Assembly: GCA_964631415.1 (NCBI GenBank)
Contig: CAZVZC010000006.1
Span: 3,001-67,000 of the forward strand
Source of the DNA: an uncultured archaeon
GTDB taxonomy: Archaea; Asgardarchaeota; Thorarchaeia; Thorarchaeales; Thorarchaeaceae
DNA: 64,000 bases
Reading direction: 5' to 3'
Made by a program: the position numbers and the translations under genes
Notes under the pieces: generated by a model
Seen by the model: only the letters and a program-made list of their open reading frames with translations
What the model was told of the DNA's origin: nothing
The model's database searches: none
In this document: positions 18,466-61,400 of the stretch, one piece after another
Layout: each line of letters begins with the position of its first letter
Numbering within the stretch: the first letter of the stretch is position 1

Positions 18466-19514
18466 TAGTTCGTGATTCAGTGTCAACGCGGAAGCCACAC
18501 CCTGGGCGAAAGCCTGGCAGAGAAGGAAGTGCCGGGTCAGATCTCAAGATTGGGAAAACCCCGGAAGCACTCAGGCTCATCGGCTACGATCAGGAGATGC
18601 TCGACAGACAGTTTCAGGTCCTCAGGATCATCCTTCGGAAACAGCAAGAGCAAGGGGTTCCAGTTCCATTCAAGGACATAGAGAGTCAGATACGGGTAGA
18701 AGCCGACAACAGGAGCGTCGTTCGTCCCCAGATATATCGATGGCTAACGTCTTTGGAGAAGGATGGATATTTGAGTGTTGACAGGTTCTCTAGGCCCCAC
18801 CGCTATTCTGCCTCTGTCGAAACCTTGGCAGCCGCTCTTAGTGAAGCTAGGACGAGGGCTCTGGTTTCCTTGGAACGGGAGAGAATGAGGCTTCTCTCAG
18901 ATATCCAGAACCTATATGTCAACCGCGACCCAAGTGACAACGAGTCTGAAGCTCCAGACTTCTCGCGTCTTGCCGGTGATACAATCGAATTGATCACAGG
19001 AGTCCGCCAAAGGACCGTGGTCAGGTTCGCTGAAGGGCTGGAACAGATAAACAGACTGATTGATAGTGAGGTATACTCGACCGTCAGAAAGAGGGATGTC
19101 CTCAGACTCTCGATGGGCCAGAGGGGTATCGACTTGGTCACCGCAGAGCAGCATACGAAAGCTGTAAGCAGACTCGCCAATAAGGGGGCCATCTTCAGAG
19201 TATTACTGAGTAGTAACTTCGACACAAACGACAGGATTGGTCGCCTAGTTGTTGATACCTACAGGTCGCTGATCCAAGACAGCCTCGATGTTTCACTAAA
19301 GAGGCGTACGCGTTCGGAGGAAACATACCAGATGGTCGCAAGAAACAGCGACAGGGTGGTACTCAGGGTGTCAGATGAGCCAATCGCAGCCACCTTCATC
19401 CCGAGATTCATCAATCAGGAGCTAGTAGACGATGCCATTGCGAGCTTCGATGCGGAATTCGCCATAGCGACAGATGTCACGACCGGGACATCCGATTGGA
19501 GGACTAAAGCGTGA
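18462..19514 (+). CDS. TrmB-like transcriptional regulator paralog 3
   Basis: 'FQVLRIILRKQQEQGVPVPFKDIESQI...IYRWLTSLEKDGYLSVD' and the C-terminal 'AATFIPRFINQELVDDAIASFDAEF'. ATGA overlap with paralog 2. Confidence 0.7.
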   Translation: MIVRDSVSTRKPHPGRKPGREGSAGSDLKIGKTPEALRLIGYDQEMLDRQFQVLRIILRKQQEQGVPVPFKDIESQIRVEADNRSVVRPQIYRWLTSLEKDGYLSVDRFSRPHRYSASVETLAAALSEARTRALVSLERERMRLLSDIQNLYVNRDPSDNESEAPDFSRLAGDTIELITGVRQRTVVRFAEGLEQINRLIDSEVYSTVRKRDVLRLSMGQRGIDLVTAEQHTKAVSRLANKGAIFRVLLSSNFDTNDRIGRLVVDTYRSLIQDSLDVSLKRRTRSEETYQMVARNSDRVVLRVSDEPIAATFIPRFINQELVDDAIASFDAEFAIATDVTTGTSDWRTKA

Positions 19515-20470
19515 GCAAAGCTGCGGCAGCACTCGATTTGATTGACATTCACCTCGACTCCAGCGAGATGGAGGTTCTCCGGTACTTGTTGAAAGCCTCA
19601 CGAGGCCCGCAGAGAGTCACCTTCACTACCGTATATGACCAAGTCAAAAAGGCAAAGGTCAGACCTCCAACGAGAGCCTGGGTGTATGAGTGCCTCAGAA
19701 AGCTGGAAACAGACGGTTTCATATCTGTCGACAAGCTGCCTCGACCTTGCTCCTACATCGTGAGCAGCGAAACAATCGCGAACGGTCTGGAGCGCGCTTG
19801 GAAGAGCAGACTGGATTCGATAGAGAGTGAGATCGGACTACTGACTCGGACTAGTGCAGAGGACTTGGCCGCCTTCCTGTACAAGTCTGCAAACGGCAGC
19901 CCAATGCAGCAGAACACGAATGTTGCCAGAGGGGTCGAGAACGTCAGAAGGCTCATCAGATCCGAACTGCTGGACAGGAAACAGTGGAAGGCAGGCGACG
20001 AACTGAAGCTCATTCACAGACTGGACAACCTGATTGGCGCGAAGGGTCCCAGTGGTCCTGTGGACAAAGAGATAGTTGCTGCTGCCATGGATGGCCTCAA
20101 TGTGCGTGTAGTGTTCATATTCTCAGATATCGCACTTGATGGTTTAGGTGATGTTGCTTCATTCATGCGTGACGAGGGCAGCCAGCTTGCGAGTCTGCTC
20201 ATGAGTGGGCGTCTACAGATCAGACTGTATCCTGAAGATGTGGCAACATACAGAATCGTCGCCCTGAACAGAAGCAAATTGGTGATGTTACTGACGAATG
20301 CATTCAGGCCCGACGCGGCTGTACTACTAGACCAGGCCGAGCAACCGGTCATAGTTGAGCATGCGATGCAGAGGTTTGACACGCTTTGGAACCAGTCGAT
20401 AGACGCCAGAGAGCTTATGGCAGCCATGTTTGCAAAGTCTGGTAATCCCAATGCGGGCAGTACCGGCTAG
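19511..20470 (+). CDS. TrmB-like transcriptional regulator paralog 4
   Basis: 'MEVLRYLLKASRGPQRVTFTTVYDQV...VYECLRKLETDGFISVD' and the C-terminal 'PVIVEHAMQRFDTLW'. GTGA overlap with paralog 3. Confidence 0.7.
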   Translation: MSKAAAALDLIDIHLDSSEMEVLRYLLKASRGPQRVTFTTVYDQVKKAKVRPPTRAWVYECLRKLETDGFISVDKLPRPCSYIVSSETIANGLERAWKSRLDSIESEIGLLTRTSAEDLAAFLYKSANGSPMQQNTNVARGVENVRRLIRSELLDRKQWKAGDELKLIHRLDNLIGAKGPSGPVDKEIVAAAMDGLNVRVVFIFSDIALDGLGDVASFMRDEGSQLASLLMSGRLQIRLYPEDVATYRIVALNRSKLVMLLTNAFRPDAAVLLDQAEQPVIVEHAMQRFDTLWNQSIDARELMAAMFAKSGNPNAGSTG

Positions 20471-20490
20471 ATCCATTCTCAAGCTGATAC

Positions 20491-21561
20491 CTAGCCTGAT
20501 GCAACGACCCAGTCCTTGCTCTCTGTCAGTGTCGAGAACACGTCATCGCACACAGCCTGGAAGTCGTGATACGGCCCGTATTCACCGCCTGCCGCATACG
20601 CGTGTCCGCCGCCTTTGAAAAGCGCCGCGGCGGCATTACACAAGACGCTTTCCCGGCCACGCCGGAATCCCAGCATCCCGCCGGGACTCAAGGTTACAAA
20701 GAGGTCGGCCACGGGTAGTTGTCGGTCGGCAAGGTTGAGATTCTTCGTATCAGCGACGAATGTGCCTATGTCAGTCGTTGTCACTCCATTTGGCATCTCT
20801 ACTATCCGGACCAGACGGCCGTGTATCTCCAAGTCGCAATGGGCGGCCAAGGCTTTTCGCATCTTCTTGAGCCGCTCCTTCCGATAGTTGTCTACCCTTT
20901 GATTGAGCAAGACATCACGGAACTTCCTGCCACTCTCATCCCAGATGCCAGACAGTCCTGTTTCTGCTAGGCTCCTGAGGAGGGGCATCAGAGCCGCTGT
21001 TAGGTCATCTCCCTTGTCGAGTGCAGCGAATCTTGTCAAGGACAGTGCGTCAGTGAGTGCGCTTGCGGACTCTATCTCTCTAATGTTGAAATCAGTGTCG
21101 TGCGCAATCTTGGCCATCTCTGCACACACCTCGTCCCGCGGCAACAACACCTTGAATGCTATCTCAGCTCCGCAGTACTCGTGGTTGATCCGCAGCACAG
21201 GGCTGTTGGCAAGTGATAGTATGGATTTCACTGCCCTATCAGGCCATTCATGATGATCAAGCCATACTACCCTGCAACCCTGGGCTGTGGCCCTCCTTAG
21301 CGAACTGATAACTGTGTCAAGGGAGTTCCCATCAAGACCAAGGTCTGTGACTACAATGAGGGTGTTCTTGAAGCCGCCTACCTTTGGAAAGACAGCTTCG
21401 AATGAACCGTAATCAGTGAGTATCACGCTGTGTTTGAGGCCCTTGGACTTCGCATATCGCCACACGATAGCCGCAGAGATGAAACCGTCCGCATCCTTCT
21501 CGTGAGAAATCGAATATAGAGAGGTGATTTTGGTGCTTGGTGTCTCAGTCGGTTCGGTCAT
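20491..21561 (-). CDS. DHH/DHHA1 family phosphoesterase (NrnA/RecJ-like)
   Basis: Motifs 'HEKDADGFISAAI' (DxD), 'VVWLDHHEW' (DHH) and 'GGGHAYAAGG' (DHHA1 GGGH). 356 aa. Confidence 0.85.
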   Translation of the reverse strand: MTEPTETPSTKITSLYSISHEKDADGFISAAIVWRYAKSKGLKHSVILTDYGSFEAVFPKVGGFKNTLIVVTDLGLDGNSLDTVISSLRRATAQGCRVVWLDHHEWPDRAVKSILSLANSPVLRINHEYCGAEIAFKVLLPRDEVCAEMAKIAHDTDFNIREIESASALTDALSLTRFAALDKGDDLTAALMPLLRSLAETGLSGIWDESGRKFRDVLLNQRVDNYRKERLKKMRKALAAHCDLEIHGRLVRIVEMPNGVTTTDIGTFVADTKNLNLADRQLPVADLFVTLSPGGMLGFRRGRESVLCNAAAALFKGGGHAYAAGGEYGPYHDFQAVCDDVFSTLTESKDWVVASG

Positions 21562-21677
21562 TGCGCGTCATCTTGGGCGTGACTTCGGTCTTTTGACGCT
21601 TTTCCTAGTATCCAACACTAGTCCTTTCGAAAACGTTTTCTCTGCACTCAGGCCCCTTCACAGAAGAGCTGGACCAT

Positions 21678-23549
21678 ATGGCGAACTCTCAATACTCTCT
21701 CATGAGCGGCAATGAGGCGATGGCAAGAGGAGCGATAGAGGCTGGCGTTGGATTTTGTGCTTCTTATCCGGGAACGCCCTCCACTGAGATCACGGAGAGC
21801 CTCATGCGAAGCGCTTCTGCTAGAGGAATCTATGTTGAGTGGAGCATCAATGAGAAGGTGGCCCTTGAGGCAGCCTCTGCAGCCAGCTGGGTGGGAATCC
21901 CCGCTCTCTGCCCCGTGAAATCACTCGGTCTGAATGTCGCAGCGGATTTCCTCCTGAATCTCAACCTGTCTGGCAGCGGGACGGGTGGGTTGGTCATCGT
22001 GGTTTGCGATGACCCGGAAGGACACAGCTCAAGCAACGAACAGGACTCAAGGTTCTATGCGAAAGCGGCCATGCTACCGATGCTGGAGCCCTCCAGCGGT
22101 CAGGAGGCAAAGGAAACGATTCTCTATGCCTTCGACCTTTCTAGAAGGCACGAAGTGCCTGTGATTGTACGAAGCACAACGAGGCTGAGTCACTCTAGCA
22201 GTCTGGTGAGTGTCGGGTCGTTGCCACGAACAACGCCGGTGGCTTTGTCCTCTTTTCCCAGAGGCCTCTTCAACGTGCCGCAGCCGGCCATGAAGCACAG
22301 GGAGCTGCTAAGCAAGATGCGGCTCATAGAGGCTGAGTTCGAGCAGTCCAGCTTGAACAAGCTGAATGTAGGCCCTGACATCAAGACCCTCTTGATATCC
22401 TCCGGTATCTGCCAGAGGTACTCCGAGGAGGCACTGGCACTTGTCAACATCGAGAACACGGGAAGCCTAGGCCTTGTCACAACAAGCCCAATCCCCACTG
22501 GGTTGATTCAGAATGCCATGGCGGGGGTGGAGAAGGTGCTCTTTGTAGAGGAGACAGACCCGTTCTTGGAGGATGAGATACGCTCCCTCTCTGCGGACCT
22601 CCCAATGCCCGGTCGGCCCCGTTTCTATGGAAAGCGCACGAAAACCCTCCCTGCTTGGGGTGAGATGAGTGTGGATCGTGTTGTGGAAGCTCTGTCGGCA
22701 GTTCTTGGGGTTCCACACGAGAAGGAACTACAACCAGCTCAAGATGCCCGCGTCAGAGGGGCCAAGCTGCTCATCCCAAGGCCGCTGACATTCTGCGCAG
22801 GCTGTACTCACAGGAACGTGTACTGGGCATTGCGGCAGGAGAAGAAGAGAAGAGGCGGCCGGCTTGTCGTTGCTGGAGACATTGGCTGCTACTCGATGGG
22901 CGTCTTCTATGACGAGGCCATGAATACGATGCAGGCCATGGGCTCCGGCATCGGTACCGCATGTGGACTCGGGCAACTTGGCAGGTTCGGTTTCGAGTCT
23001 GCCGTCGTGGCTGTGGCAGGCGACTCCACATTCTTCCATGCCTGCTTGCCAGCTCTCGTGAATGCACGACACAAGAATGCGAACCTCACCTTCCTGATAC
23101 TTGACAATGAAACGACTGCAATGACCGGATTTCAGCCCCATCCCGGTTCTGCTATACAGGACAAGGGCCAACGGCGCATCAGCATTCCGGACCTGGTTCA
23201 AGCAATCGGTCCGGATTACATGACGACGAGGGACTCTGTCGAGATAGACCCGCTCGTCGAACTCATTCATACCGCTGTCGCAAAAGATGGCCTCAAGGTC
23301 CTCATCCTGAAGGGCGTGTGTCGGCTGGAGCAACAGCGGCGCGGTTTCCTCCACGATGATCTACATAGAGTGAGCGTGGATCCGGCTCTCTGTCGTGGTG
23401 AGAAGTGTGAGATATGCTTCAACCAGTTCGGCTGCACTGCTATTGGCTGGCTCCCCAAAGAGAAACGAGCCACAATCCTTGATGAAGTATGTGTGCGTTG
23501 CGGCTCATGCATCGGAGTGTGTCCCCATAAGGCCATTCATCGGGAGTGA
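21678..23549 (+). CDS. iorA: Indolepyruvate:ferredoxin oxidoreductase subunit alpha
   Basis: 'GNEAMARGAIEAGVGFCASYPGTPSTEI' at the N-terminus. TPP-binding region 'GDIGCY...GDSTFFH'. C-terminal ferredoxin-type 'CVRCGSCIGVCP'. Followed by the beta subunit with a 4-nt overlap. Confidence 0.9.
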   Translation: MANSQYSLMSGNEAMARGAIEAGVGFCASYPGTPSTEITESLMRSASARGIYVEWSINEKVALEAASAASWVGIPALCPVKSLGLNVAADFLLNLNLSGSGTGGLVIVVCDDPEGHSSSNEQDSRFYAKAAMLPMLEPSSGQEAKETILYAFDLSRRHEVPVIVRSTTRLSHSSSLVSVGSLPRTTPVALSSFPRGLFNVPQPAMKHRELLSKMRLIEAEFEQSSLNKLNVGPDIKTLLISSGICQRYSEEALALVNIENTGSLGLVTTSPIPTGLIQNAMAGVEKVLFVEETDPFLEDEIRSLSADLPMPGRPRFYGKRTKTLPAWGEMSVDRVVEALSAVLGVPHEKELQPAQDARVRGAKLLIPRPLTFCAGCTHRNVYWALRQEKKRRGGRLVVAGDIGCYSMGVFYDEAMNTMQAMGSGIGTACGLGQLGRFGFESAVVAVAGDSTFFHACLPALVNARHKNANLTFLILDNETTAMTGFQPHPGSAIQDKGQRRISIPDLVQAIGPDYMTTRDSVEIDPLVELIHTAVAKDGLKVLILKGVCRLEQQRRGFLHDDLHRVSVDPALCRGEKCEICFNQFGCTAIGWLPKEKRATILDEVCVRCGSCIGVCPHKAIHRE

Positions 23550-24175
23550 TTCATTTGGATAGACCATACAATGTGCTCATTGCAGGGGTAGGAGGACAAG
23601 GAAACCTACTATGCGGAAGGGTCCTGGCTGAGGCCGCCATCTCGGAGGGATACAGGCCCACTATTGGCGAAACCTTTGGAGCCTCGCGCAGGGGCGGAAC
23701 AGTGGTCACACACGTGCGCCTTGGAAACCGAGACCTAGGCCCCCTGATTCCTCGTGGCACAGTCGATATGTTGATTGGTCTTGAACCGATGGAATCCCTT
23801 CGTGCGGCAGTGGACTACTGTGAAGACCGCGCCGTCGCAGTTGTGAGTACTGCCGAAGTGCAAACAATGCAGTGCATAGCGGGAGCAACGAAGTACCCGT
23901 CGTTGGCAGGCATATTGGATGTCATGTCCTCAATCTGTGCAAGCGTTTCCTCTGTAGATCCTGTTGCAGTCCTCGGTGAAACCGGGTACAGACGCGTCCT
24001 GAACTCCTTCATGTTGGGAGCGGCACTCGCCTCTGGCATAGCAACTCTCACGGCAAACCGTGTTAGAGATACGCTGACCGGGCTCATGCAACCTGTGGAC
24101 CCCAATGTAGCTGCATTCGATGCAGGGCTCAAAGCCTCCGCCAAAGTGCGAGCCCGAGATCTCAGAGCACATTAG
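23546..24175 (+). CDS. iorB: Indolepyruvate:ferredoxin oxidoreductase subunit beta
   Basis: 'YNVLIAGVGGQGNLLCGRVLAEAA' is the gamma-type OFOR domain. 209 aa, translationally coupled to iorA. Confidence 0.85.
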   Translation: MIHLDRPYNVLIAGVGGQGNLLCGRVLAEAAISEGYRPTIGETFGASRRGGTVVTHVRLGNRDLGPLIPRGTVDMLIGLEPMESLRAAVDYCEDRAVAVVSTAEVQTMQCIAGATKYPSLAGILDVMSSICASVSSVDPVAVLGETGYRRVLNSFMLGAALASGIATLTANRVRDTLTGLMQPVDPNVAAFDAGLKASAKVRARDLRAH

Positions 24176-26481
24176 ACACCATGTTTCTTGGTGTCAGCGG
24201 TCTTCTTGGCCTCGTTCCACATGAGCTCGGCCAGAATCGTGAACATGTCCGCCACACCCTCGCCTGTCTTTGCACTGCTTTCCATGTAGACAAAACCCTG
24301 TGACTCGGCCCATTGCTTGGCCTCTTCACTACTGACCGCCCTGTCGGGCAAGTCTATCTTGTTGCCCACGCATACCATGGGTACGCGGCCACCTATTGAC
24401 TCATCCGACTCCTCTAGCCACTTGACTAGCTCGCTGAAGGAACGCCGGCGGGTGACATCGAACACCAGTATGACTCCTGCGGCTCCACTGTAGTACATCT
24501 TGCGTACTGCTTTGAAACGAGCTTGGCCGGCAACATCCCACGCTTGTATCTTGATGCCTGTAGCGTATTGTGACTCTGGCGGCGAGATGTGCGTGAGCTT
24601 GACTGCGAACTGTGACCCTATCGTGGTCTTGTAGTCCTTCTCGAATTGACCAGTCGTGAATCTGTTGACGAGAGCCGTCTTTCCCACTGCACCCTCGCCT
24701 ATCACCATGGTCTTGAACAGGTAGCTGTATGAGTCTGAGGGTGTACCGGGCTTAGGGGCCTTGGGTTTCCGTGCACGGATCTCGGCTACAATGGCGCTCT
24801 CGACTGACACAACCGCTCGTGCAGGGACCTCCACAGCAGGCTCCTCTTCCTCAGGGAGCTCGGCCAGTGCAGCAACGTCTATGCTAGTCACTTCGGTCGT
24901 TTCGCTGAAGAGCCTGTCGAGCAGTTTCTCTGCCTCACGCAATGACGCCGCTGTGCCTTCTGTCATCTCCGGTTCTTCATCGGGCGATGTGATTGTTTCT
25001 TCCGTTGAAACCCTGCCAAAGCCCGTGCCGACAGTTTCTCCAAAGAGTGTGCCTGTTTCCTCCTCAGGAACTTCGGCCTCTTTTTGTGGGGTAAGCACAA
25101 CAGGGGCTACGGCTGATGCTGCTGCCGTCACGGATCCCTTCTCAACCATTACCGCGGTTTCAGGAGTGGTTACCTGCCGCACCCGGCCGTCGGAATCTGT
25201 CCACATGAGCACTATCGGTCTCACGATTACCGAGCCCTCGGCCTTTGGCATTAGCTGAAGCTCAACAGTCTTAGTTTCAAAGGGTCCGAGGTCGAAGCGC
25301 ACCTGTTGCGGAGTTACATCCATGTCCGCCTTGGGAAACCAGTAGACCTTCCCACTAACACTACTGACAGGCTTGTCTGTCACGTTGGTCAGTGTGACGC
25401 GACCTGCCAACCCAGTACCAGTTTTTGCCTGAGGACTCACTTCGAACTTGGGTATGACCGTATACAATCCTTGGATGACCTTGAGTGGACCATTGGATAT
25501 ACCGACGAGAACCTCCTTCCTTCCGTCGCCTCCCGCATCTCCGGCACTGATAGTGAGTATCTTGGTCCCAATGTCTACCTTTGCTATCTGTTGCAGTTCA
25601 GCTGCCTGGATATTGTAGAAGACAACATTGGCGTCGGAGGTGGCGACTACGGCCTCATCCATATGGTCGGCATTCAGCTCCTCAATCCTCAGAGAGAGAG
25701 CTTTGACTTTGTCCAGCATCGTGAATAGCTCGAGATGGCTCTCTTCGTTGCGATATACTCGTATTGACCCGTCGTAGGTCACGACGCCCAGTTCCATCTT
25801 GCGATCTCCGAGCAGATCACCAGAGGCGACAGAAACTACAGGGCTCGGCAGGTTGAGTACCTCCATCTGCTCGATTGTATGATCCTTCACTTTGAAGACT
25901 CTGACCGTCTTGTCTCTGTTGCCCGTGACGATTTCATCTATCTCATCACCATCGACGTCGCATGTCCCTATCGTTATGGGCATGTCATCGAGCCGATAGC
26001 GCGCATACTCTGACAGGTTGTTCAAAGTATCCATCTCAAATACCCTGAGAGTTGAGTCGCTGCCACCCACCATGATCTCATTCTTGTCGTCACCAGTCAC
26101 ATCAGTGACTCTGACGGTCGTCACGAATCGGTCGACAGGATGTTCTGCCAATAGCTCGAGACTCCCGCTGGATGAGAACCTGTAGACCTGCAGGGTACCA
26201 GCAATCCCCGCTACATCCCGGGGACCTATGCTCCGGCCGACCACTATTTCGTTCTGTCCATCGTTATTGGCGTCAGCAATCTCAATAGATAGAATGCTTC
26301 CTTCGACGTCAAGTTGAGCCAGAAACTGAATCTCGCTCTTGTTAGCATCATAGACACGCAGCACTCCGTCACGCCCACCTGTACAGAGCTCGGACTTCCC
26401 CGTACCTACAACATCACCTACGGCGATTGCACTGGTGCTCTTGTCTTCCTTTATCTCGAAGAGAACTCTTGGTGAATCCAA
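24172..26481 (-). CDS. Seven-bladed FG-GAP/VCBS-type beta-propeller - beta-sandwich - acidic linker - Rab/Ras-like small GTPase fusion protein
   Basis: 769 aa with no signal peptide or TM. Seven repeats fit the form 'D..GD...E(I/L)(V)VG..D..(L/I)RV(F/Y)'. C-terminal G1 'GEGAVGKT', G3 'WDVAGQ', G4 'GNKID' and G5 'SAK' are present. Confidence 0.85.
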   Translation of the reverse strand: MDSPRVLFEIKEDKSTSAIAVGDVVGTGKSELCTGGRDGVLRVYDANKSEIQFLAQLDVEGSILSIEIADANNDGQNEIVVGRSIGPRDVAGIAGTLQVYRFSSSGSLELLAEHPVDRFVTTVRVTDVTGDDKNEIMVGGSDSTLRVFEMDTLNNLSEYARYRLDDMPITIGTCDVDGDEIDEIVTGNRDKTVRVFKVKDHTIEQMEVLNLPSPVVSVASGDLLGDRKMELGVVTYDGSIRVYRNEESHLELFTMLDKVKALSLRIEELNADHMDEAVVATSDANVVFYNIQAAELQQIAKVDIGTKILTISAGDAGGDGRKEVLVGISNGPLKVIQGLYTVIPKFEVSPQAKTGTGLAGRVTLTNVTDKPVSSVSGKVYWFPKADMDVTPQQVRFDLGPFETKTVELQLMPKAEGSVIVRPIVLMWTDSDGRVRQVTTPETAVMVEKGSVTAAASAVAPVVLTPQKEAEVPEEETGTLFGETVGTGFGRVSTEETITSPDEEPEMTEGTAASLREAEKLLDRLFSETTEVTSIDVAALAELPEEEEPAVEVPARAVVSVESAIVAEIRARKPKAPKPGTPSDSYSYLFKTMVIGEGAVGKTALVNRFTTGQFEKDYKTTIGSQFAVKLTHISPPESQYATGIKIQAWDVAGQARFKAVRKMYYSGAAGVILVFDVTRRRSFSELVKWLEESDESIGGRVPMVCVGNKIDLPDRAVSSEEAKQWAESQGFVYMESSAKTGEGVADMFTILAELMWNEAKKTADTKKHGV
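24175..24729 (-). other. Domain: Rab/Ras-like small GTPase (aa 585-769)
   Basis: 'LFKTMVIGEGAVGKTALVNRFTTGQFEKDYKTTIGSQF...IQAWDVAGQARF...VCVGNKIDL...ESSAKTGEGV'. Confidence 0.85.
25462..26481 (-). other. Domain: seven FG-GAP-like propeller blades (aa 1-340)
   Basis: Blades are centred on 'VGDVVGTGKSELCTGGRDGVLRVY', 'IADANNDGQNEIVVGRS', 'VTDVTGDDKNEIMVGGSDSTLRVF', 'TCDVDGDEIDEIVTGNRDKTVRVF', 'SGDLLGDRKMELGVVTYDGSIRVY', 'LNADHMDEAVVATSDANVVFY' and 'AGDAGGDGRKEVLVGISNGPLKVI'. Confidence 0.75.
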
Positions 26482-26655
26482 CTTGTGTTACCTTCCGTGC
26501 TCTGTCAGTTACACTCCGCAGGTCTGGACTACTTTCGATGAGCTCAGAAGCAAACTGCGTCAATTGCACCTTCGAGGTGAGGTGGCCTTTTCTACTTTGT
26601 GCGCTTTAAGTCCACTAGGGCGGAACAAGCCCAATCAGACACTATTTAACGGAAC

Positions 26656-27462
26656 ATGCTGATGCCCTGCGCGGCGACGAAGGTGCCCAAACTCTCAGTC
26701 CAGAACCTAGTCAAGTCCTACGTCAACGACAACCTTGAGGAAACTAGGGTACTAGACGGCATCTCCTTTGATGTTCAGGAGAGAGAGTTCCTCAGTATTC
26801 TTGGCCCGTCAGGTTGCGGCAAGACCACGCTATTGAAGATAATATCTGGGCTTCTTGAGGCAGACAGTGGCCAAGTGATCATTGATGGACATCCCGCAGG
26901 ACCTGGCCACCACCGCGTCGGTTTCATGTTTCAGCAGGAAAGCCTGTTCCCATGGAGAACCGTTAGGAAGAATATCGAGTTTGGTCTTGAGGTGAAGGGC
27001 GTGCCTACCGAAGAGAGGAGAAAACTCTCTGACAGGATGATTGCACTTGTTGGTATGAGGGGCCTAGAGGACAACCTGCCACATGAGATATCCGGGGGAC
27101 AGGCAAGGAAAACTGAGATGGCTCGCAGTCTTGTGACATCTCCAGACGTCCTGGTTTCGGACGAGGGCTTCTCCAATCTTGATGCGCAGACGAGGAACTA
27201 CCTTCAGGAGGAGTTCCTCAGGATATGGCAGGAAACTGGGTCCACAGTTATCTTCGTGTCGCATAACGTCGATGAAGCGGTCTTCATGTCAGACAGGATA
27301 ATCATGCTGAGCAATGCGCCTGCGCGAATAATAGCAGAGTATGTCATCGACCTTCCAAGGCCCCGAGACCGGACATCACCTGCGTGCTCCTCGTACCGAG
27401 CGAAGATACTTGAACTCCTCAAAGTGGAACAGGAGAAGGCAATGAGAATCAGGTATAGCTAG
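26656..27462 (+). CDS. ABC transporter ATP-binding protein (NitT/TauT nitrate/sulfonate/taurine family)
   Basis: Walker A 'GPSGCGKTT', signature 'ISGGQARK', Walker B region 'VLVSDEGFSNLD', H-loop 'VSHN'. Confidence 0.85.
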   Translation: MLMPCAATKVPKLSVQNLVKSYVNDNLEETRVLDGISFDVQEREFLSILGPSGCGKTTLLKIISGLLEADSGQVIIDGHPAGPGHHRVGFMFQQESLFPWRTVRKNIEFGLEVKGVPTEERRKLSDRMIALVGMRGLEDNLPHEISGGQARKTEMARSLVTSPDVLVSDEGFSNLDAQTRNYLQEEFLRIWQETGSTVIFVSHNVDEAVFMSDRIIMLSNAPARIIAEYVIDLPRPRDRTSPACSSYRAKILELLKVEQEKAMRIRYS

Positions 27463-28313
27463 ACAGCCACTTCTCTGCGCCACCTGAGCAGCTTCCTCTC
27501 GGCTCGTAGAAACACATAGCTGATCAGGAACCCAATGGCACCAATCACAAGCATCGCTGATATCGTTTCGCCTGTCCTGCCCGTCTGCTGCGTGATGGTG
27601 ACGAGGTATCCCAAGCCTATTGCACTACCAAACATCTCTGCGGCCACCAAGCACATCCAACCGATCCCGAAGCCGATTCGAAGACCTGCAAGTGTTTCAG
27701 GAGCGGCTGACGGGAGGACAATCTTCGACAGAATCTGGAGTTCAGACGTACCGAAAGTGCTTGCCACATCGAGATGGACAGTACTCGTTCTCTTCACACC
27801 GGCTGTCGTGTTGATGAGTATTGGGAAGAATGCGCCCAGCCAAATGATGAAGACCTGCGCTCCAATCATGTTTGACCGGAAAAGCAGGATTGACAAGGGA
27901 ATCCAGGCGATTGGGGGCAATGGACGGAAGGCCTCAACGACGGGCCCCATGATCATGCTCGCTAGCCGGTATCTGCCGATCGCTACGCCGAGAGGAATCG
28001 CAGTGGCCGAGGCGATTGTGAACCCGAGAGTCACACGCACCATGCTCATCGCTGTGTGCTGCCCGAGAGTGGTCCCGTCGGTATCGCCTTCGACAACGAG
28101 CTTCACAAAGGAGCGCGCAATGTCAGGTAGGCCGATTCCTTGCGCGAAGTACGCTATGAGTTGCCATATGACGAGCAGAATCGCCAAAGGGACTACTGCC
28201 TTCAGAAGTATATCGACTGGACTGGATCCTTGCCACTTGGCTTTCCTCTGACGAGCCTGAGAAACGGCTTTCATCTCCACATGTTCTTCGGTTGAGCCCG
28301 ACATCGTATTCAT
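27459..28313 (-). CDS. ABC transporter permease (NitT/TauT family)
   Basis: 284-aa polytopic hydrophobic ORF adjacent to the binding protein. Its stop codon overlaps the ATPase stop within the palindrome CTAG (27459-27462). Confidence 0.8.
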   Translation of the reverse strand: MNTMSGSTEEHVEMKAVSQARQRKAKWQGSSPVDILLKAVVPLAILLVIWQLIAYFAQGIGLPDIARSFVKLVVEGDTDGTTLGQHTAMSMVRVTLGFTIASATAIPLGVAIGRYRLASMIMGPVVEAFRPLPPIAWIPLSILLFRSNMIGAQVFIIWLGAFFPILINTTAGVKRTSTVHLDVASTFGTSELQILSKIVLPSAAPETLAGLRIGFGIGWMCLVAAEMFGSAIGLGYLVTITQQTGRTGETISAMLVIGAIGFLISYVFLRAERKLLRWRREVAV

Positions 28314-28364
28314 GCGGATGTTCTACTGACTGCCTTTTGTTTCTGCCGTTCATATGCCCTTCAA

Positions 28365-29402
28365 TCACGGTGAGTTCTCTATGAATGTGGCATTGATGAA
28401 ATCGTCCAGATACGGGTCGATTTCACTCGGATTCATCGTGACTTGTTCCTGGGCGATAAGGAACGTCAGGAACACCTCAACAGCTGTACGATTCAGGTTG
28501 TAGTCGTACACGATGCGGTTGAAGGCGTTCTCCACGGGTGTGGAATTCACTCCCAACCACTGAGTAGCAATGCTAATCGCTTCAGCCGGGTTTGCTACAA
28601 TCCACTCTTCTGCTCTCTTGTGGATGTCGACTACCTTCTGCACGACATCGGGATGCCTGCTGACGAAACTATCCGACGACGCCAGCACGCAGCAAGGATG
28701 GCCGGGCCATATGTCGTGGGATAGTGCTATGGGAACCGCAAGGTTGTCGTACTCAGCCAGTGCAGGGAACGGTTCCCACGCAATGAATGCAGGGGCTTCT
28801 GGGGTGAGCGATATTGCCATGTTCTGTGGTGCTGCCGCCACGGGCGTGATATCCGAATATGAAAGCCCAGACTGGTTGAGAGCGAGCCGAAGCAGGAAGT
28901 TCTGAACGCTCGATGGACCGGGGTGGAAGACGGTCTTGTTGACAAGGCCCGTGACGTTGACGATTCTGCCAGCGTCATATTCTCCCTTGAGCACCATTAT
29001 TGATGACCCTTCAAGATTCGCAGTTGCCAGCACACTCACGGATATGTTCTGGTTGATGCTCTTGGTGAGGGCAGGAGCTACACCCAGATAGCCCATGTCT
29101 ATCTGTCCTGCCAAGAAACCATCCATCTCGTAGGCCCCGTTCTGGTACTGCAGCAACTCAACTGTGAGACCTGCTTCCGTGAACCAGCCCTTCACATACG
29201 CAATTCTCAGAGCCAGTTGATGAAGATCTTGGGCCAAGTATCCGATTCTGACATCCGGCGGTGCAGGGGCGAACCAAACCATAACGGCTACTCCAGAGGC
29301 AACCACGATGACTACCACGGCTGCTGCAGCTATCTTCTTTCTTTCCATGTCCTTGTTCCTGCCAGATGCAATCAAGACTTCGTAGCCCGTGTTGAGTGGC
29401 AC
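28365..29402 (-). CDS. ABC transporter substrate-binding protein, NMT1/SsuA-like
   Basis: N-terminal anchor 'AAAAVVVIVVASGVAVMVWF'. 'IGYLAQDLHQLALRIAYVKGWFTEAGLTVELLQYQNGAYEMDGFLAGQIDMGYLG' is typical of NMT1/THI5-like binding proteins. The likely start is ATG 29348. Confidence 0.75.
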   Translation of the reverse strand: MPLNTGYEVLIASGRNKDMERKKIAAAAVVVIVVASGVAVMVWFAPAPPDVRIGYLAQDLHQLALRIAYVKGWFTEAGLTVELLQYQNGAYEMDGFLAGQIDMGYLGVAPALTKSINQNISVSVLATANLEGSSIMVLKGEYDAGRIVNVTGLVNKTVFHPGPSSVQNFLLRLALNQSGLSYSDITPVAAAPQNMAISLTPEAPAFIAWEPFPALAEYDNLAVPIALSHDIWPGHPCCVLASSDSFVSRHPDVVQKVVDIHKRAEEWIVANPAEAISIATQWLGVNSTPVENAFNRIVYDYNLNRTAVEVFLTFLIAQEQVTMNPSEIDPYLDDFINATFIENSP

Positions 29403-30676: not shown

Positions 30677-31837
30677 GTGGCCCCAATCTGTCCCACCATT
30701 ATAGCTCAGAGCGAGTCACTAGAGATGAATACCCTCGAAGAACCCCAGCCGAGCATCCAGACAGACCCTCACATTAGTCATGATCCGATCTACATCTCAG
30801 GGAATGACGGTTTCTCATCATGGCCGGGCACAGGGAGCAAGCAGGATCCTTTTGTGATAGAGGGCTTGAACATCACAAGCCCAGACTACTGCATCTGGGT
30901 GTCTAACACGACGGTGTGCTTCGTGATTCGAAACTGCATACTGCGGTGCACGACTGGGGGATGGTCGTCACTCACTCTGAACCAGGTCGCGAACGGAGCA
31001 GTCGAGCTCTGCGTTTCTCTTGATGGATTTCACGGAATTGACATTCTCTCCTCGGTCAACTGCACCGTCGAGGAATGCATGCTCAGGGGAAGCACGATTG
31101 GTATCCTGATGTCAGAGGCAGACAACTGCACTCTGTCCAGAAACACGGTTTATCTGAACCAAGAAGGTATTGAACTGACGGGCACAAACGATTCCCTAGT
31201 TGTGAACAACACATGCTTTCGAAACGCGCATTCAGGAATCAGAGTGTTATTGGAGTCCCATCGGAACAGAGTCTTCCTCAACAGCCTGGGGTGGAATCCG
31301 TACGAGGGCGCACCGTGCGTGAACGCACTAGACGATGGACGACTCAACCTGTGGGACGACAATGTCAGCAATGGTAACTTCTGGAACGATTATGTAGGAA
31401 CGGGAAGCTATTCAATCAGAGGTACGGCTGTTTCTCGTGACCACTTCCCATCGGTACTCCTAGACACACTTGCCCCTGAAGTAGACCACCCTGACGATGC
31501 TAGACTGGGGCTGGGCGATACAGGAAAGTTCCTGACTTGGCAAGCTTACGACAGGTTCCCGTACAGCTATGTGCTCTTCTGGGACGGACAATGGATGGAT
31601 GGAAACCCGTGGGATGGGGACGGAATAAGAGCCGAACTCGATGACATATCTGTGGGGGTTCACAACTGCTCCCTGCTCGTGTACGACATTGGAGGAAATA
31701 CGGCCAGCGACACAGTCATGGTCGTCGTGACTTTCAATGTTCTAGGCGGCCTAGGAACGGAACTAGTAGGCATTGCATCAGCAGTCAGTGTTGTCCTCAT
31801 GGTCGCCGGCATTCTGGTTGTCAAGGCGATGCGATAG
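30677..31837 (+). CDS. Surface protein with right-handed parallel beta-helix (NosD/pectate-lyase-like) repeats and C-terminal TM anchor
   Basis: Repeats 'CIWVSNTTVCFVIRNCIL', 'GIDILSSVNCTVEECML', 'GILMSEADNCTLSRNTV', 'GIELTGTNDSLVVNNTC'. C-terminal 'LVGIASAVSVVLMVAGILVV'. The N-terminus is problematic (see findings). Confidence 0.7.
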   Translation: MAPICPTIIAQSESLEMNTLEEPQPSIQTDPHISHDPIYISGNDGFSSWPGTGSKQDPFVIEGLNITSPDYCIWVSNTTVCFVIRNCILRCTTGGWSSLTLNQVANGAVELCVSLDGFHGIDILSSVNCTVEECMLRGSTIGILMSEADNCTLSRNTVYLNQEGIELTGTNDSLVVNNTCFRNAHSGIRVLLESHRNRVFLNSLGWNPYEGAPCVNALDDGRLNLWDDNVSNGNFWNDYVGTGSYSIRGTAVSRDHFPSVLLDTLAPEVDHPDDARLGLGDTGKFLTWQAYDRFPYSYVLFWDGQWMDGNPWDGDGIRAELDDISVGVHNCSLLVYDIGGNTASDTVMVVVTFNVLGGLGTELVGIASAVSVVLMVAGILVVKAMR

Positions 31838-57504: not shown

Positions 57505-58485
57505 ATGAGCACCACCCCTCGGCACGAAATCGAGATCGTCGACCTTAAGGTGGCGTTCAAGAAGCTCCTTGCACTCAAGGGAGTATCGTTCTACGCCGAC
57601 AAGAGAGAGTTCTTGGGTGTTGTGGGCGCGTCAGGAGCCGGCAAGACTACCGTGCTGAGAGTACTCACCGGGCAGATATCACCGACAGGGGGCAAGGCCT
57701 TCGTGGGCGGCTACGACGTCACCAAGAAGAGAAAACTCATCAGCCTCCTTGTTGGCTATGTGCCCCAGCTGGAGCACCTCAGCCTCTACTACGACTTCTC
57801 TGCAATTCAAAATGCGCAGTTCTTTGGCCGATGTTTTGGCATGAGACCAAAAGAGATTGAAGAGAGAGCAAGAAGCATACTGACAATCCTAGGCTTTGAT
57901 GAAGACCTGATGACCAAGAAGGTGGAGAAGCTCTCAGGAGGAGAGAGAAAGAGAGTATCGATATGCCTAGGGATGGTGCACAACCCTCCAGTGTTGCTTC
58001 TTGACGAACCAACGACAGGTCTGGATGCTCATTTACGGCATGAGACGCTGAACTACCTGAAGATGCTGAACTACGAACTCGGCACGACGATGGTGATAAT
58101 AAGCCACGACCTTGAAGTGGTGGACTACTGTACACGCGTCTGCCTGCTTGAGGACGGACAGGTTAGCCAGTTCGGCACGCCGGCCGATCTGATCTCGACG
58201 CTCCCAGGAAAAGGGGAGAGCATCCGTCTGGTCTTACCCAGAATGTCGTCTGCAGTCCTAGACAGGATTGTAGCACTGAAGAGCGTGAAATACTGGGCCA
58301 AGGCTGGCCGCAATGCAGTGAAGCTCTTTGTGGACGAGCCGCGCGAGCAGATGCTAGCCATCATAAAGAGCCTCAATGAAATGAAGATACCCTTCGAAGA
58401 GATTTCCCTTGTGGAGGCGGACTTCTTCGACTATTTCCAGGTCAAACCATGGAAGAAAAGGACCGAAGGTGTGACCCAATCATGA
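57505..58485 (+). CDS. ABC transporter ATP-binding protein (second ATPase of the module)
   Basis: Walker A 'GASGAGKTT', signature 'LSGGERKRV', Walker B 'LLLDEPTTGLD', 'ISHD', plus a ~100-aa C-terminal extension. ATG 57505 lies 1 nt after the protease stop (track start 57481). Confidence 0.85.
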   Translation: MSTTPRHEIEIVDLKVAFKKLLALKGVSFYADKREFLGVVGASGAGKTTVLRVLTGQISPTGGKAFVGGYDVTKKRKLISLLVGYVPQLEHLSLYYDFSAIQNAQFFGRCFGMRPKEIEERARSILTILGFDEDLMTKKVEKLSGGERKRVSICLGMVHNPPVLLLDEPTTGLDAHLRHETLNYLKMLNYELGTTMVIISHDLEVVDYCTRVCLLEDGQVSQFGTPADLISTLPGKGESIRLVLPRMSSAVLDRIVALKSVKYWAKAGRNAVKLFVDEPREQMLAIIKSLNEMKIPFEEISLVEADFFDYFQVKPWKKRTEGVTQS

Positions 58486-61400
58486 AGACCCTGTATGTAG
58501 CCCTGGTGACAATACTGGCACTCGCTTTGATAAGCATGCAGCAACCTGCTTCTGACCAGTTCGCCTTGCAGATTGATGTAAGACCGGTCCATACTCCATC
58601 GGCACCTGCGGTTCTCACGCCCTTCATGACGGCTTCGGTCTGGTCAAACACAACCGGTTCACAGGTAGTCGACCTTGTGCTGGCAGATGTAGACGGAGAT
58701 GGCCTGGATGAAGCAGCCGCTGTCACTCAAAACGGAACGCTCTTCTTGTTTGCAGAGAATGGCACGAAGCTCTGGCAAATGAACCTCGGTGCCTCACCTT
58801 ATGCTATGGAGCAGGCTGCGGCGGACGCTGACGCAAAGATGGAACTGCTGATAGGCACTGCGAAAGGTCTGCTTGTTGTGTGCGGCAACCAGAGTATCGC
58901 AACGAACGTCACACTTTCGAATGCTGTTAGAGCAGTGGCGCCTGTGGACTTGAACGGGGACTCAATAGATGAACTGTCGGCGGGTTGCGATGACTACAGG
59001 GTCTACGCTTACGCTCTGAACGCGACTCAGCTGTGGAACTACACAAGCAATGGACGTGTTCGCAGGATTCTGGCCGACGACTTCGACCTAGACGGACTAG
59101 GAGAGATCCTGTCTGCCTCTGATGGCAGGAGGGTCACATTACTGGAGAGCAATGGGACAGCAGTCTTCGAGGAGTTGAGCCCCAGCACCATTGGTGTCAT
59201 GGGCTCTGGTGACTTGACCGGCAGCTCTGACCTAGAGGCCATTGTTGGAACGGGCGCAGGAACAATCCAAGTCTACTGGCGAAACGGTACCCTCGCATTC
59301 TCGGTGGCCGTGAACAGCAGCGTATCCTCTCTGACTACAGGGCAAGTAGTTGTTGGAGGCTACGATGAATTTGCAGTCGGAACTTCGGGCAACGAGCTCA
59401 GAGTCTACAGCTCCTCCGGATCACTAATGTGGAACAGGACGTTGGGAGGGCAGGTTTCTGTGGTCAAGCTCCTAGATGTCGCGGGGCTGCCCGAAAATCA
59501 AGTTCTGGCGGGCTCTGACGGAGGAGCCCTGTTTCTCTACAATGCATCCGGATATCGGGTCAATCAGACTGTGGTCGGGGGTCTCGTCGGTGTTCTTGAT
59601 GTGGGTGACTTGGACGGAAATGGCAAGGCAGAGTATGCTGCAGGGACAAACACGGGACTCATGACAGTCTACGGACTTGATTATGACAGGGATGGTCTTG
59701 CCGATGCGAGAGAGACCCTTATCGTAGGCACTCTCTGGGACAATCCCGACACCGACGGTGACCGCCTGACCGACGGACAGGAGGTCCTCCAGTACGGAAC
59801 AAACCCGCTCAAGCCCGACTCTGATTCTGACGGGCTCTCAGACTTTGCAGAGGTCATCACGTATGGCACAGATCCCAACAGCGTTGACTCGGATGCTGAC
59901 AGGCTGACGGACTGGCAAGAGGTCTACCTGGGGACCAACCCCAACCGAGCTGACACAGATGGAGACCAGCTCACAGACTACGAGGAGAACAATGTCACGC
60001 TGACTGACCCAGAAGTTGCCGACACGAACGGTAACGGCATAAACGATGCCCAAGATGATAATGACGGAGAAGGTCTCACAAATATCCAGGAAGTCAGATT
60101 GACTTACACAGACCCGAACGATGTCGATTCTGACAATGATGGGGTTTCCGACTACTATGATGATCAGGACGCAGACAACCTCGCAAACTGGAAAGAGATC
60201 TCGGTCGGCACTGACCCACTAAACCCGGACAGTGACTCGGATGGTCTGCGGGACGGTGATGAGGTCAAATTCTGGAAGACGGACCCTCTCAGTGAGGACA
60301 CTGATTCGGACCAGCTGACTGACTACGACGAAGTGATGACGGTCCACTCCAATCCGAAGGTGGCAGACACCGATGGAGACGGGCTTGATGATTACGCCGA
60401 GTATGTCACCTATGGCACTAATTCCTCTGACCCTGACACTGACGACGATGGTCTCAACGACTATGATGAGATACGCGTATACTCGACGAATGCAACCAAT
60501 CCCGACAGCGACGCTGACGGACTGCTTGATGGCGCCGAGGTCAATACATGGAAGACAGACCCCAACAGTAACGACACTGACCTCGATGGCCTCACAGACT
60601 ATGCAGAGGTGGTGACTTGGCATACCAATGCTACGTTGACAGATACAGATGCAGACGGGCTAGATGACGGACAGGAGATTATTACCTACCACACCAATGC
60701 GACCTCTGTCGACACCGACCTTGACGGAGTATGGGACAAGGACGAGGTGGATCGCTATCCTATCTTCAATGCCACGAATGCGCACACGTTCAACAGCACT
60801 GTCAATGACTACGAATGGGACTACGATAGTGATGGACTTTCGAACGGCTTTGAGATATATATGACCCGGACCAATCCGTTGCTCGCAGACACTGACGGGG
60901 ACGGAACCCTTGATGATCTCGAGGACTCGGATCTTGATGGACTTGACAACTACGAGGAACTCGTCGCAGCAACACATCCCAGAAGACCGGACAGTGACGG
61001 GGATGGCGTGAAGGATGGTGACGAGGTCAAGGTCCTAGACACGGACCCTAATGACAAGGATACCGATGACGACTCCACAAATGACTATGACGAGGACTTC
61101 GACGGAGACCGACTATCAAACGGTGTCGAACTATACATAACGCATACGGACCCGAAGAACGCCCACACTCACGGAGCAGGACAGGCTCGTGACGACTACT
61201 ATGATAGTGACAGCGACGGGCTGTCCAATTGGTTCGAAGTGGTGATGAGCCGCACCGATCCAGTCTACAATGATACGGATGACGACGGCACTCTCGACAC
61301 ACAGGAAGACCCTGACAATGACAGACTTGACAACATTCACGAGTTTCTTGCGGGGACTGACCCCTTGGCAGCTGACACGGACAGCGATGGACTGACCGAC

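Follow-up and report, generated by a model that had tools for sequence, protein, structure and literature searches.

We focus here on a single gene in a stretch of 64,000 nucleotides (the window, meaning the whole of the DNA that was analysed) from an uncultured archaeon of the Thorarchaeaceae (GenBank assembly GCA_964631415.1, contig CAZVZC010000006.1, positions 3,001 to 67,000 of the forward strand). The gene encodes a four-part cytoplasmic protein of 769 residues, in which a seven-bladed beta-propeller of the FG-GAP class is followed by an immunoglobulin (Ig)-like beta-sandwich, an acidic tether of ~120 residues and a Rab-like G domain (Table 1). The G domain has kept every catalytic motif, while the signal for a lipid anchor is missing. 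An identical copy of the protein is present in public protein data (P0001), and the annotation in public records says 'GTP-binding protein' and nothing more. An earlier reading of the window, made from the letters alone (the sequence-only reading), had proposed that one open reading frame (ORF) joins a propeller, a beta-sandwich, a linker and a GTPase, without a signal peptide, a transmembrane segment or a C-terminal cysteine, and had implied an Asgard host. This arrangement is borne out by the ORF, the Pfam matches and a model from AlphaFold2, and the labels of related loci identify the organism as an Asgard archaeon of the Thorarchaeota.

Table 1. Features of the propeller-GTPase gene; positions are those of the window.
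Feature	Position	Strand	Residues	Basis
Whole gene, 769-residue multidomain Rab-like GTPase	24172..26481	-		start TTG 26481-26479, stop codon 24172-24174 (ORF list)
Seven-bladed FG-GAP-type beta-propeller	25462..26481	-	1-340	Pfam FG-GAP_3, AlphaFold2, repeat register, invariant residues
Ig-like beta-sandwich, CARDB / MG / TRAP-beta / ASH-MSP type	25132..25461	-	341-450	AlphaFold2 model of the domain alone, Foldseek, Pfam ASH
Acidic, probably disordered tether	24730..25131	-	451-584	lowest conservation, composition, charge
Linker motif 1, VGTGFG	25015..25032	-	484-489	per-column conservation 0.8-0.9
Linker motif 2, SLREAEKLLDRLF	24907..24945	-	513-525	conservation 0.8-0.99
Linker motif 3, basic, Pro-rich EIRARKPKAPKPG	24745..24783	-	567-579, directly before the G domain	conservation 0.5-0.9
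Rab-like G domain	24175..24729	-	585-769	Pfam Ras, NCBIfam small_GTP, PDB match, motif conservation

Translation begins at a TTG codon that is preceded, 9 nt upstream, by the Shine-Dalgarno-like sequence GGAAGG. The N-termini of homologous proteins fall at the same start position, and many of them begin with ATG (Met). The N-terminus is not hydrophobic and no signal peptide was found, nor does the 769-residue protein contain a transmembrane segment, the highest 19-residue Kyte-Doolittle score being 1.28. At the other end of the protein, a cysteine within the last 12 residues occurs in none of the 115 full-length family members, and the family is thereby left with no Rab-type C-terminal cysteine for geranylgeranylation.

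Over residues 590-753 the Pfam model Ras matches with an E-value of 2.7e-46 and 157.5 bits (cut-off 21.6), and the NCBIfam model small_GTP agrees on the G domain at 89.6 bits. The motifs of a small GTPase are found as G1 GEGAVGKT (residues 595-602), the switch I threonine T620, G3 DVAGQ (649-653), G4 NKID (707-710) and G5 SAK (736-738). Among the 115 members, GEGAVGKT, YKTTIG, WDVAGQ and SAK are mostly conserved at more than 90%; the isoleucine of GNKID is variable (consensus T), in keeping with the NKxD motif. With its G1-G5 motifs and G-domain profile match, the protein falls within the Ras superfamily, and the complete small GTPase that had been read into residues 585-769 stands. Which branch of the superfamily it resembles was evident from the PDB sequence matches, by which the G domain is nearer to Rabs than to Ras, Rho, Ran or Arf. 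The best match is the Thorarchaeota Rab 7EZB (E=3.6e-44, 45% identity), and the remaining 59 of the 60 PDB sequences listed all belong to the eukaryotic Rab family (Rab1/2/4/11/14/25/30/35/43, RABA1a, Ypt1 and Sec4), with an identity of 43% to Rab14. Measured against the canonical RabF1-F5 motifs of Pereira-Leal and Seabra, the G domain agrees at 16 of 27 residues (IGSQF, KIQAW, RFKAVR, YYSGA and LVFDVT). Judged by its sequence, the domain resembles Rabs, in the sense in which Asgard Rabs do, and is not MglA-like. The sequence-only reading had named a grouping with generic MglA/Ras-like families as an outcome that would speak against it; the best PDB matches are Thor-Rab and then the Rabs. In addition, the family has a conserved insertion of its own of 4-6 residues at the tip of the beta2-beta3 (interswitch) hairpin, with the sequence ISPPESQYATG in residues 632-642 and the family consensus ISPPESxYATG.

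The best-matching protein of known structure, Thor-Rab (PDB 7EZB, KXH73347.1), comes from the same phylum and shares with the 769-residue protein a G[DE]GAVGKT P-loop, partial RabF motifs and the absence of a C-terminal prenylation cysteine. Unlike the fusion described here, which adds an N-terminal extension of 584 residues, Thor-Rab is a stand-alone protein of 182 residues. It is an active GTPase with slow intrinsic GTP hydrolysis that is structurally closest to Rab/Ras, and its switch I carries an arginine (Arg37), a putative intrinsic arginine finger that other Thor paralogues are without (PMC10933270). That paper is silent on a propeller-GTPase fusion, and no account of such an architecture was found in the searchable literature when Asgard was combined with BBSome, Bardet-Biedl, ITFG2, FG-GAP or propeller-GTPase. 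In the alignment with 7EZB, the 769-residue protein differs from Thor-Rab not only in the extra 4-6 residues of the beta2-beta3 hairpin but also in having a threonine at the position of Arg37 (DYKTTIG compared with DYKRTIG). Because this threonine replaces the putative arginine finger, the G domain likely needs a partner or a GTPase-activating protein (GAP).

In the large Rabs of eukaryotes (Rab44, Rab45/RASEF and CRACR2A), a C-terminal Rab-type G domain stands behind N-terminal interaction domains and a flexible region, as it does here. However, the large Rabs have EF-hands and coiled coils where the present protein has a propeller and an Ig-like domain, and they have kept C-terminal prenylation; the comparison does not imply homology of the N-terminal parts. 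The ROCO proteins (Roc plus COR, such as LRRK2 with its C-terminal WD40 domain) likewise hold a Ras-like G domain within a multidomain propeller or repeat protein, and Pfam Roc does match the G domain at 105.6 bits, below the score of the Ras model, with the Rabs remaining closest. The ROCO domain order is different, with COR following Roc, whereas here nothing follows the G domain and Pfam gives no match to COR at E<=1. Membership of the ROCO family was rejected for lack of a COR domain.

At the opposite end of the protein, seven repeats with a period of ~47 residues are visible directly in the sequence, with blades that begin near residues 17, 65, 122, 170, 216, 263 and 309 and with the most canonical D-x-N-x-D-G-x-x-E loop in blade 2 (D70...E78). 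The Pfam model FG-GAP_3 matches this N-terminal third in four stretches at 71.3 bits. The AlphaFold2 model of residues 1-452, built from 25 family members, has a predicted local distance difference test score (pLDDT) of 90.7 and a predicted template modelling score (pTM) of 0.86, and in it residues 6-336 form exactly 28 strands, which amount to seven four-stranded blades, while residues 342-447 form a second all-beta domain of about 10 strands. Thus the seven blades with their repeat motif that had been proposed for residues 1-340, and the beta-rich region proposed for residues ~341-447, correspond to a propeller and a beta-sandwich in this model. The propeller is strongly acidic, with a net charge of -25.

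The search with the family profile covered all 1.84 billion protein representatives at 50% identity, and the nearest sequence relatives of the propeller were prokaryotic FG-GAP proteins at 83-212 bits. Those of single-propeller size score 83-114 bits, as against 31 for ITFG2, 19.8 for BBS7 and 15.9 for BBS2 under the same profile. Prokaryotic FG-GAP/VCBS proteins belong to the same repeat class (FG-GAP_3), are closest in propeller sequence and often have an Ig-like DUF11 or CARDB domain after the propeller; unlike the 769-residue protein, most of them are of giant size, contain many repeats and are secreted or located at the surface. None of the 10 that were examined carries a GTPase. Among the best 150 representatives outside the family, none matches the profile through the Ig-like domain and one reaches position 369. 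The order of propeller then Ig-like DUF11 domain is also found in P0136, a generic FG-GAP protein, and the order of these modules is therefore not diagnostic. Several of the nearest relatives of the propeller have no evident leader and for that reason look cytosolic. Small FG-GAP-like propellers of this leaderless kind, with the motif 'GDGK.E..vG..D..lrvf', were observed in P0212, P0147, P0213, P0223, P0233 and P0268, of which P0212 (Helarchaeales) and P0147 (Promethearchaeota) carry Asgard labels and P0147 has its propeller joined to repeated DUF5817_CT-type modules. These small proteins may be the unfused form of the propeller.

When the second domain was modelled alone with AlphaFold2 (pLDDT 86.5), its best Foldseek match was the luminal domain of TRAP-beta (E=1.7e-6; template modelling score on the query, TMq, 0.74-0.78), with further matches to complement macroglobulin (MG) domains, Pyrococcus CARDB, MSP/VAP, the chaperone Caf1M, and the ASH-type domains of CEP192 and Hydin. 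Pfam ASH matches the domain below threshold in 19 of 23 members, and Transglut_C, fn3_6 and BatD are other Ig-like models with sub-threshold matches.

The tether that joins this module to the G domain is the least conserved part of the protein (0.24-0.38 identity). Counted on the stretch 453-572 of the 115 family members, it is 107-135 residues long (median 121), with a median net charge of -20, and is rich in A/E/T/V/P/S. The sequence-only reading had described residues ~448-584 as a low-complexity linker, which holds for its acidic, E/P/T/A-rich composition but not for its whole length, as three conserved islands interrupt it. The first, VGTGFG, is kept in typical Thor members and missing from P0122, a member of only 42% identity. 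The second (consensus SLxxAExLLDxLF) has an i/i+3/i+4 spacing of hydrophobic residues that suggests an amphipathic helix; the linker of P0122 holds a stretch of like pattern (...AAKAFLETIDTLI...), the two being left unaligned by BLASTP. The third has the consensus EIRxR+PKxP+PG, adjoins the Rab-like 'YxYLFK' N-terminus of the G domain and is clearly kept in P0122 as PPKPRKPGRP. The restricted length of 107-135 residues, together with three motif islands of which the basic-Pro one persists in P0122, indicates that the tether has a function and does more than space the domains apart.

How widely the architecture occurs, a point that the sequence-only reading had raised, was followed in both protein and genome data. 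The N-terminal 450 residues as a query gave 165 matches, and the best 120 clusters of these have 64-100% N-terminal identity, are nearly all 765-785 residues long with a Ras domain and, where a taxon label is given, almost all come from Thorarchaeota. A scan of species-representative genomes recovered 71 loci, the closest being that of isolate OWC3 with 96% identity. The named loci are nearly all from Thorarchaeota, with one from Hermodarchaeota and several that bear the name of the phylum only; about a dozen are entered as 'uncultured archaeon', and a single weak match comes from a bacterium. In Thorarchaeota genomes the gene occurs once per locus set. At all 67 loci where the downstream sequence is long enough, a single stop-free frame holds both propeller and G domain, with G-domain identities of 73-98%. 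Among the 1.84 billion representatives there are only three of the full-length type; below them the scores fall steeply, and the proteins that come next are giant FG-GAP proteins with many repeats, whose match is limited to the propeller. Although just 42% identical, one of the three (P0122/P0270) has kept all four parts. On the strength of the three representatives, this distant four-part member and the uninterrupted loci, the propeller-GTPase family is old within its lineage, narrow in spread and under purifying selection.

With moderate confidence, we interpret the protein as a self-contained GTPase switch, specific to its lineage, in which the G domain is tethered to a binding platform. 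The G domain would act as the nucleotide switch, and the propeller with the Ig-like domain would form a platform for binding proteins or ligands, a part that in eukaryotes would fall to an effector or targeting factor of its own. As G domain and platform are tethered, the GTP/GDP state probably governs whether the G domain, the linker motifs or both dock onto the platform of the same molecule; candidate contacts are the inserted residues of the beta2-beta3 hairpin, the putative helix of the linker and the basic-Pro motif. Docking would then open or close the platform to its partners, and localisation would be provided by the N-terminal module in place of a prenyl tail. As for its origin, the protein would have arisen by a lineage-specific fusion between a leaderless archaeal FG-GAP propeller with an Ig-like domain and a Thor Rab-like paralogue, and would share no descent specifically with subunits of the BBSome or KICSTOR. 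The idea of a self-contained GTPase-plus-effector unit, put forward in the sequence-only reading, is a plausible inference. Some observations weigh against our interpretation. No operon partner points to a pathway, and the synteny described below is not kept in the deepest member. Moreover, the best PDB fold matches are still BBSome subunits, and their explanation at the level of the propeller class rests on controls made at the level of sequence.

It is rather unlikely that the propeller is instead a regulator of the G domain in cis and not an output platform, acting as an exchange factor, as RCC1 does for Ran and Sec12 for Sar1, or in the manner of a GAP or a guanine-nucleotide dissociation inhibitor (GDI). 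Several beta-propellers are guanine-nucleotide exchange factors (GEFs) for small GTPases or subunits of such factors, which lends the idea its appeal. A G domain that lacks the switch I arginine of Thor-Rab (PMC10933270) is plausibly dependent on a helper, and in the family both ends of the protein and the length of the tether are strictly co-conserved. However, similarity to RCC1 or Sec12 did not rank high in sequence or in fold, neither is among the top 50 Foldseek matches, no catalytic motif was identified, and a tether of ~120 residues and a propeller with a charge of -25 fit an effector role equally well.

A further reading, quite improbable in our view, sees in the N-terminal module a specific relative or precursor, on the archaeal side, of those eukaryotic cytosolic FG-GAP propellers that have a small GTPase as partner (BBS1/2/7/9 with ARL6, or ITFG2/KICSTOR with Rag), and takes the fusion as the record of an ancient functional coupling. 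With the model of residues 1-452 as a query, places 1-8 in Foldseek are taken by BBS2, BBS9, BBS7 and BBS1 (E 1e-18 to 8e-14), and ITFG2 comes next (E=4e-13; template modelling score on the target, TMt, 0.66-0.71; root-mean-square deviation 3.9-4.8 A), all ahead of WD40 proteins, integrin alphaX (1e-10, integrin alpha being 24th or lower) and beta'-COP, and the alignments to BBS2/7/9 extend over 474-521 columns, beyond the length of the propeller. In the Pfam search, where Ras and FG-GAP_3, models of the kinds that the sequence-only reading had named as a check, both match (157.5 and 71.3 bits), the propeller also matches BBS2_Mid and Beta-prop_BBS7 (58.8 bits each, cut-off 27), Itfg2 (40.9, cut-off 27) and PHTB1_N (30.7); the best stretch for Itfg2 covers model positions 13-115 of 330, about one third. 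When the family profile was compared with the PDB, ITFG2 came first (1.3e-6), then BBS7 (2.8e-3) and BBS2, with no integrin listed. The parallels extend beyond the scores. BBS2/7/9/1 are also cytosolic proteins in which a seven-bladed FG-GAP-like propeller is followed by a beta-rich region, the BBSome works with ARL6, a small GTPase that, like the one described here, has no prenyl tail, and ITFG2 of KICSTOR has the repeat motif 'GD..G....E.vvG..dG.v.vy' in common with the propeller.

However, generic prokaryotic FG-GAP proteins match the Pfam BBS and Itfg2 models at 35-85 bits (Itfg2 up to 63), the secreted propeller of a giant ORF in the same window has BBS2 as its best PDB match (6e-5), and the generic P0136 matches ITFG2 at 8.5e-11 and BBS2 at 5.9e-5, so that the controls are as strong as, or stronger than, the propeller-GTPase family. 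Because these generic controls do equally well or better and the prokaryotic relatives are far closer in sequence, the conclusion from the sequence comparisons is that the matches reflect the FG-GAP propeller class, which includes the propellers of BBS proteins and ITFG2 as well, and are not evidence of specific ancestry. The matches to BBS2_Mid, Beta-prop_BBS7, Itfg2 and PHTB1_N were accordingly no longer taken at face value once these controls were in hand. The remainder of the protein does not support a closer relationship either. For the second domain alone, no BBSome chain is among the 50 Foldseek matches listed and no BBS C-terminal Pfam model matches, and an identity as a BBS-type gamma-adaptin-ear-type (GAE) domain was ruled out by the isolated model with its fold search and by the Pfam and PDB profile searches. 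BBSome subunits contain coiled-coil, platform and helical domains, whereas here only the acidic tether and the G domain follow the Ig-like domain. The partner GTPase of the BBSome is a separate, Arf-like protein and not a fused, Rab-like one, and ITFG2 has no domain besides its propeller and works as part of a heteromeric complex. Finally, the family was found only in genomes labelled Thorarchaeota or 'uncultured archaeon', with just three representatives at 50% identity among 1.84 billion proteins. It is very doubtful that the preference for BBS2/9/7/1 and ITFG2 at the level of the fold is a mark of true ancestry, with the fusion keeping in cis a pair of propeller and GTPase that later became BBSome-ARL6, KICSTOR-Rag or both. 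If it were, Asgard archaea would already have coupled a cytosolic FG-GAP propeller to a non-prenylated small GTPase, and the 769-residue protein would be a tractable model of a pre-eukaryotic GTPase-effector pair.

The sequence-only reading had likened the propeller and beta-sandwich to integrin alpha and to coat-type proteins as well as to BBS subunits. What stands of this is the resemblance to BBS2/9/7/1 and ITFG2 in Foldseek and in Pfam models that pass their cut-offs, which at the level of sequence is equalled by generic FG-GAP proteins; the sandwich that follows the propeller is of generic Ig type. Integrin alpha was ruled out, there being no signal peptide or transmembrane segment, a Foldseek rank of 24th or lower and no integrin in the profile-to-PDB matches. 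The protocoatomer proteins (COPI, COPII, clathrin and intraflagellar-transport type) were ruled out by the lack of an alpha-solenoid after the propeller: in the model of residues 1-452, DSSP assigns no helix of at least 4 residues, and no solenoid, tetratricopeptide or other helical-repeat family is among the best 25 of 29 Pfam matches.

The sequence-only reading had warned that two genes might have been joined by an assembly error or a frameshift. This, or the possibility that the ORF is a pseudogene, has next to no chance of being correct and is refuted by the comparative data. The rare TTG start was the sole initial cause for caution, and no other support was found. At 67 of 67 independent loci the two ends share a frame that contains no stop, and the five loci with an N-terminus only stop at the end of a contig. 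Two records with the title 'chromosome' contain the gene (CP070761.1, 3.2 Mb, and CP070658.1, 2.6 Mb), the starts of homologues coincide, with ATG in many, and all domains are conserved.

The surroundings of the gene are conserved without being informative about its function. It is monocistronic, divergent from the ATPase gene of an NMT1-type ATP-binding cassette (ABC) transporter and convergent with iorB of iorBA. Its stop codon, on the reverse strand, overlaps that of iorB (forward strand, ending at 24175) at positions 24172-24175, which leaves no intergenic room for terminators. The same 4-nt overlap of stop codons is seen in CP070761.1 (locus L001, 10271-10274). The order NMT1-type substrate-binding protein, permease, ABC ATPase, propeller-GTPase, iorB-iorA and DHH phosphoesterase (19511-29402 in the window) is kept across Thorarchaeota (for example in L001 and L002). 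The deepest member, of 42% identity (L074), has a different neighbourhood, yet it still lies beside a DHH gene and a cluster for a 2-oxoacid:ferredoxin oxidoreductase, with a 319-residue Arf-like protein nearby. As the gene is monocistronic and its synteny is lineage-wide but changed in the deepest member, guilt by association gave no functional lead.

A search for paralogues found no second small GTPase in the 64-kb window. In CP070761.1, iorA and the DHH gene are separated by a stand-alone Ras/Arf-like GTPase of 177 residues (L001, 14110-14643), 33% identical to the G domain, and by a pyridoxal phosphate (PLP) enzyme of Cys/Met metabolism; both are missing at the corresponding place in the window. 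The window holds one other FG-GAP propeller, that of the giant secreted protein used as a control above. Its ORF (58482-64000, forward strand) continues past the end of the window and exceeds 1,800 residues, beginning with a hydrophobic leader (MKTLYVALVTILALALISM) and the propeller, after which come dozens of acidic Ca-binding repeats that resemble thrombospondin type 3 (DxDxDGLxDxxE). N-x-S/T sites are numerous, and the ORF probably encodes a huge surface protein. Nearer to the gene, an ORF of 386 residues (30677-31837, forward strand) has a C-terminal hydrophobic segment, and the corresponding genes of L001 and L002 match Pfam NosD/Beta_helix; its product is probably a surface protein with a right-handed beta-helix.

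These results call for caution in surveys of eukaryotic signature proteins. Ordinary prokaryotic FG-GAP propellers yield matches to BBS2_Mid, Beta-prop_BBS7 and Itfg2 and to BBSome and ITFG2 structures in the PDB, and such matches are not to be taken as homology to the BBSome or KICSTOR. The 769-residue fusion is no evidence for an archaeal BBSome or coat. Its interest lies elsewhere. Multidomain GTPases of the Ras superfamily are known, and Asgard genomes are rich in GTPases of this superfamily; none of these Asgard proteins is known to have a prenyl anchor or an effector. Here, in a strongly conserved case that is present at every Thorarchaeota-labelled locus recovered, a Rab-like switch forms one chain with a platform that is a candidate for an effector or targeting role, and the protein thereby offers a starting point for learning about the binding partners of a Rab-like GTPase in archaea and the way in which its nucleotide state is sensed.

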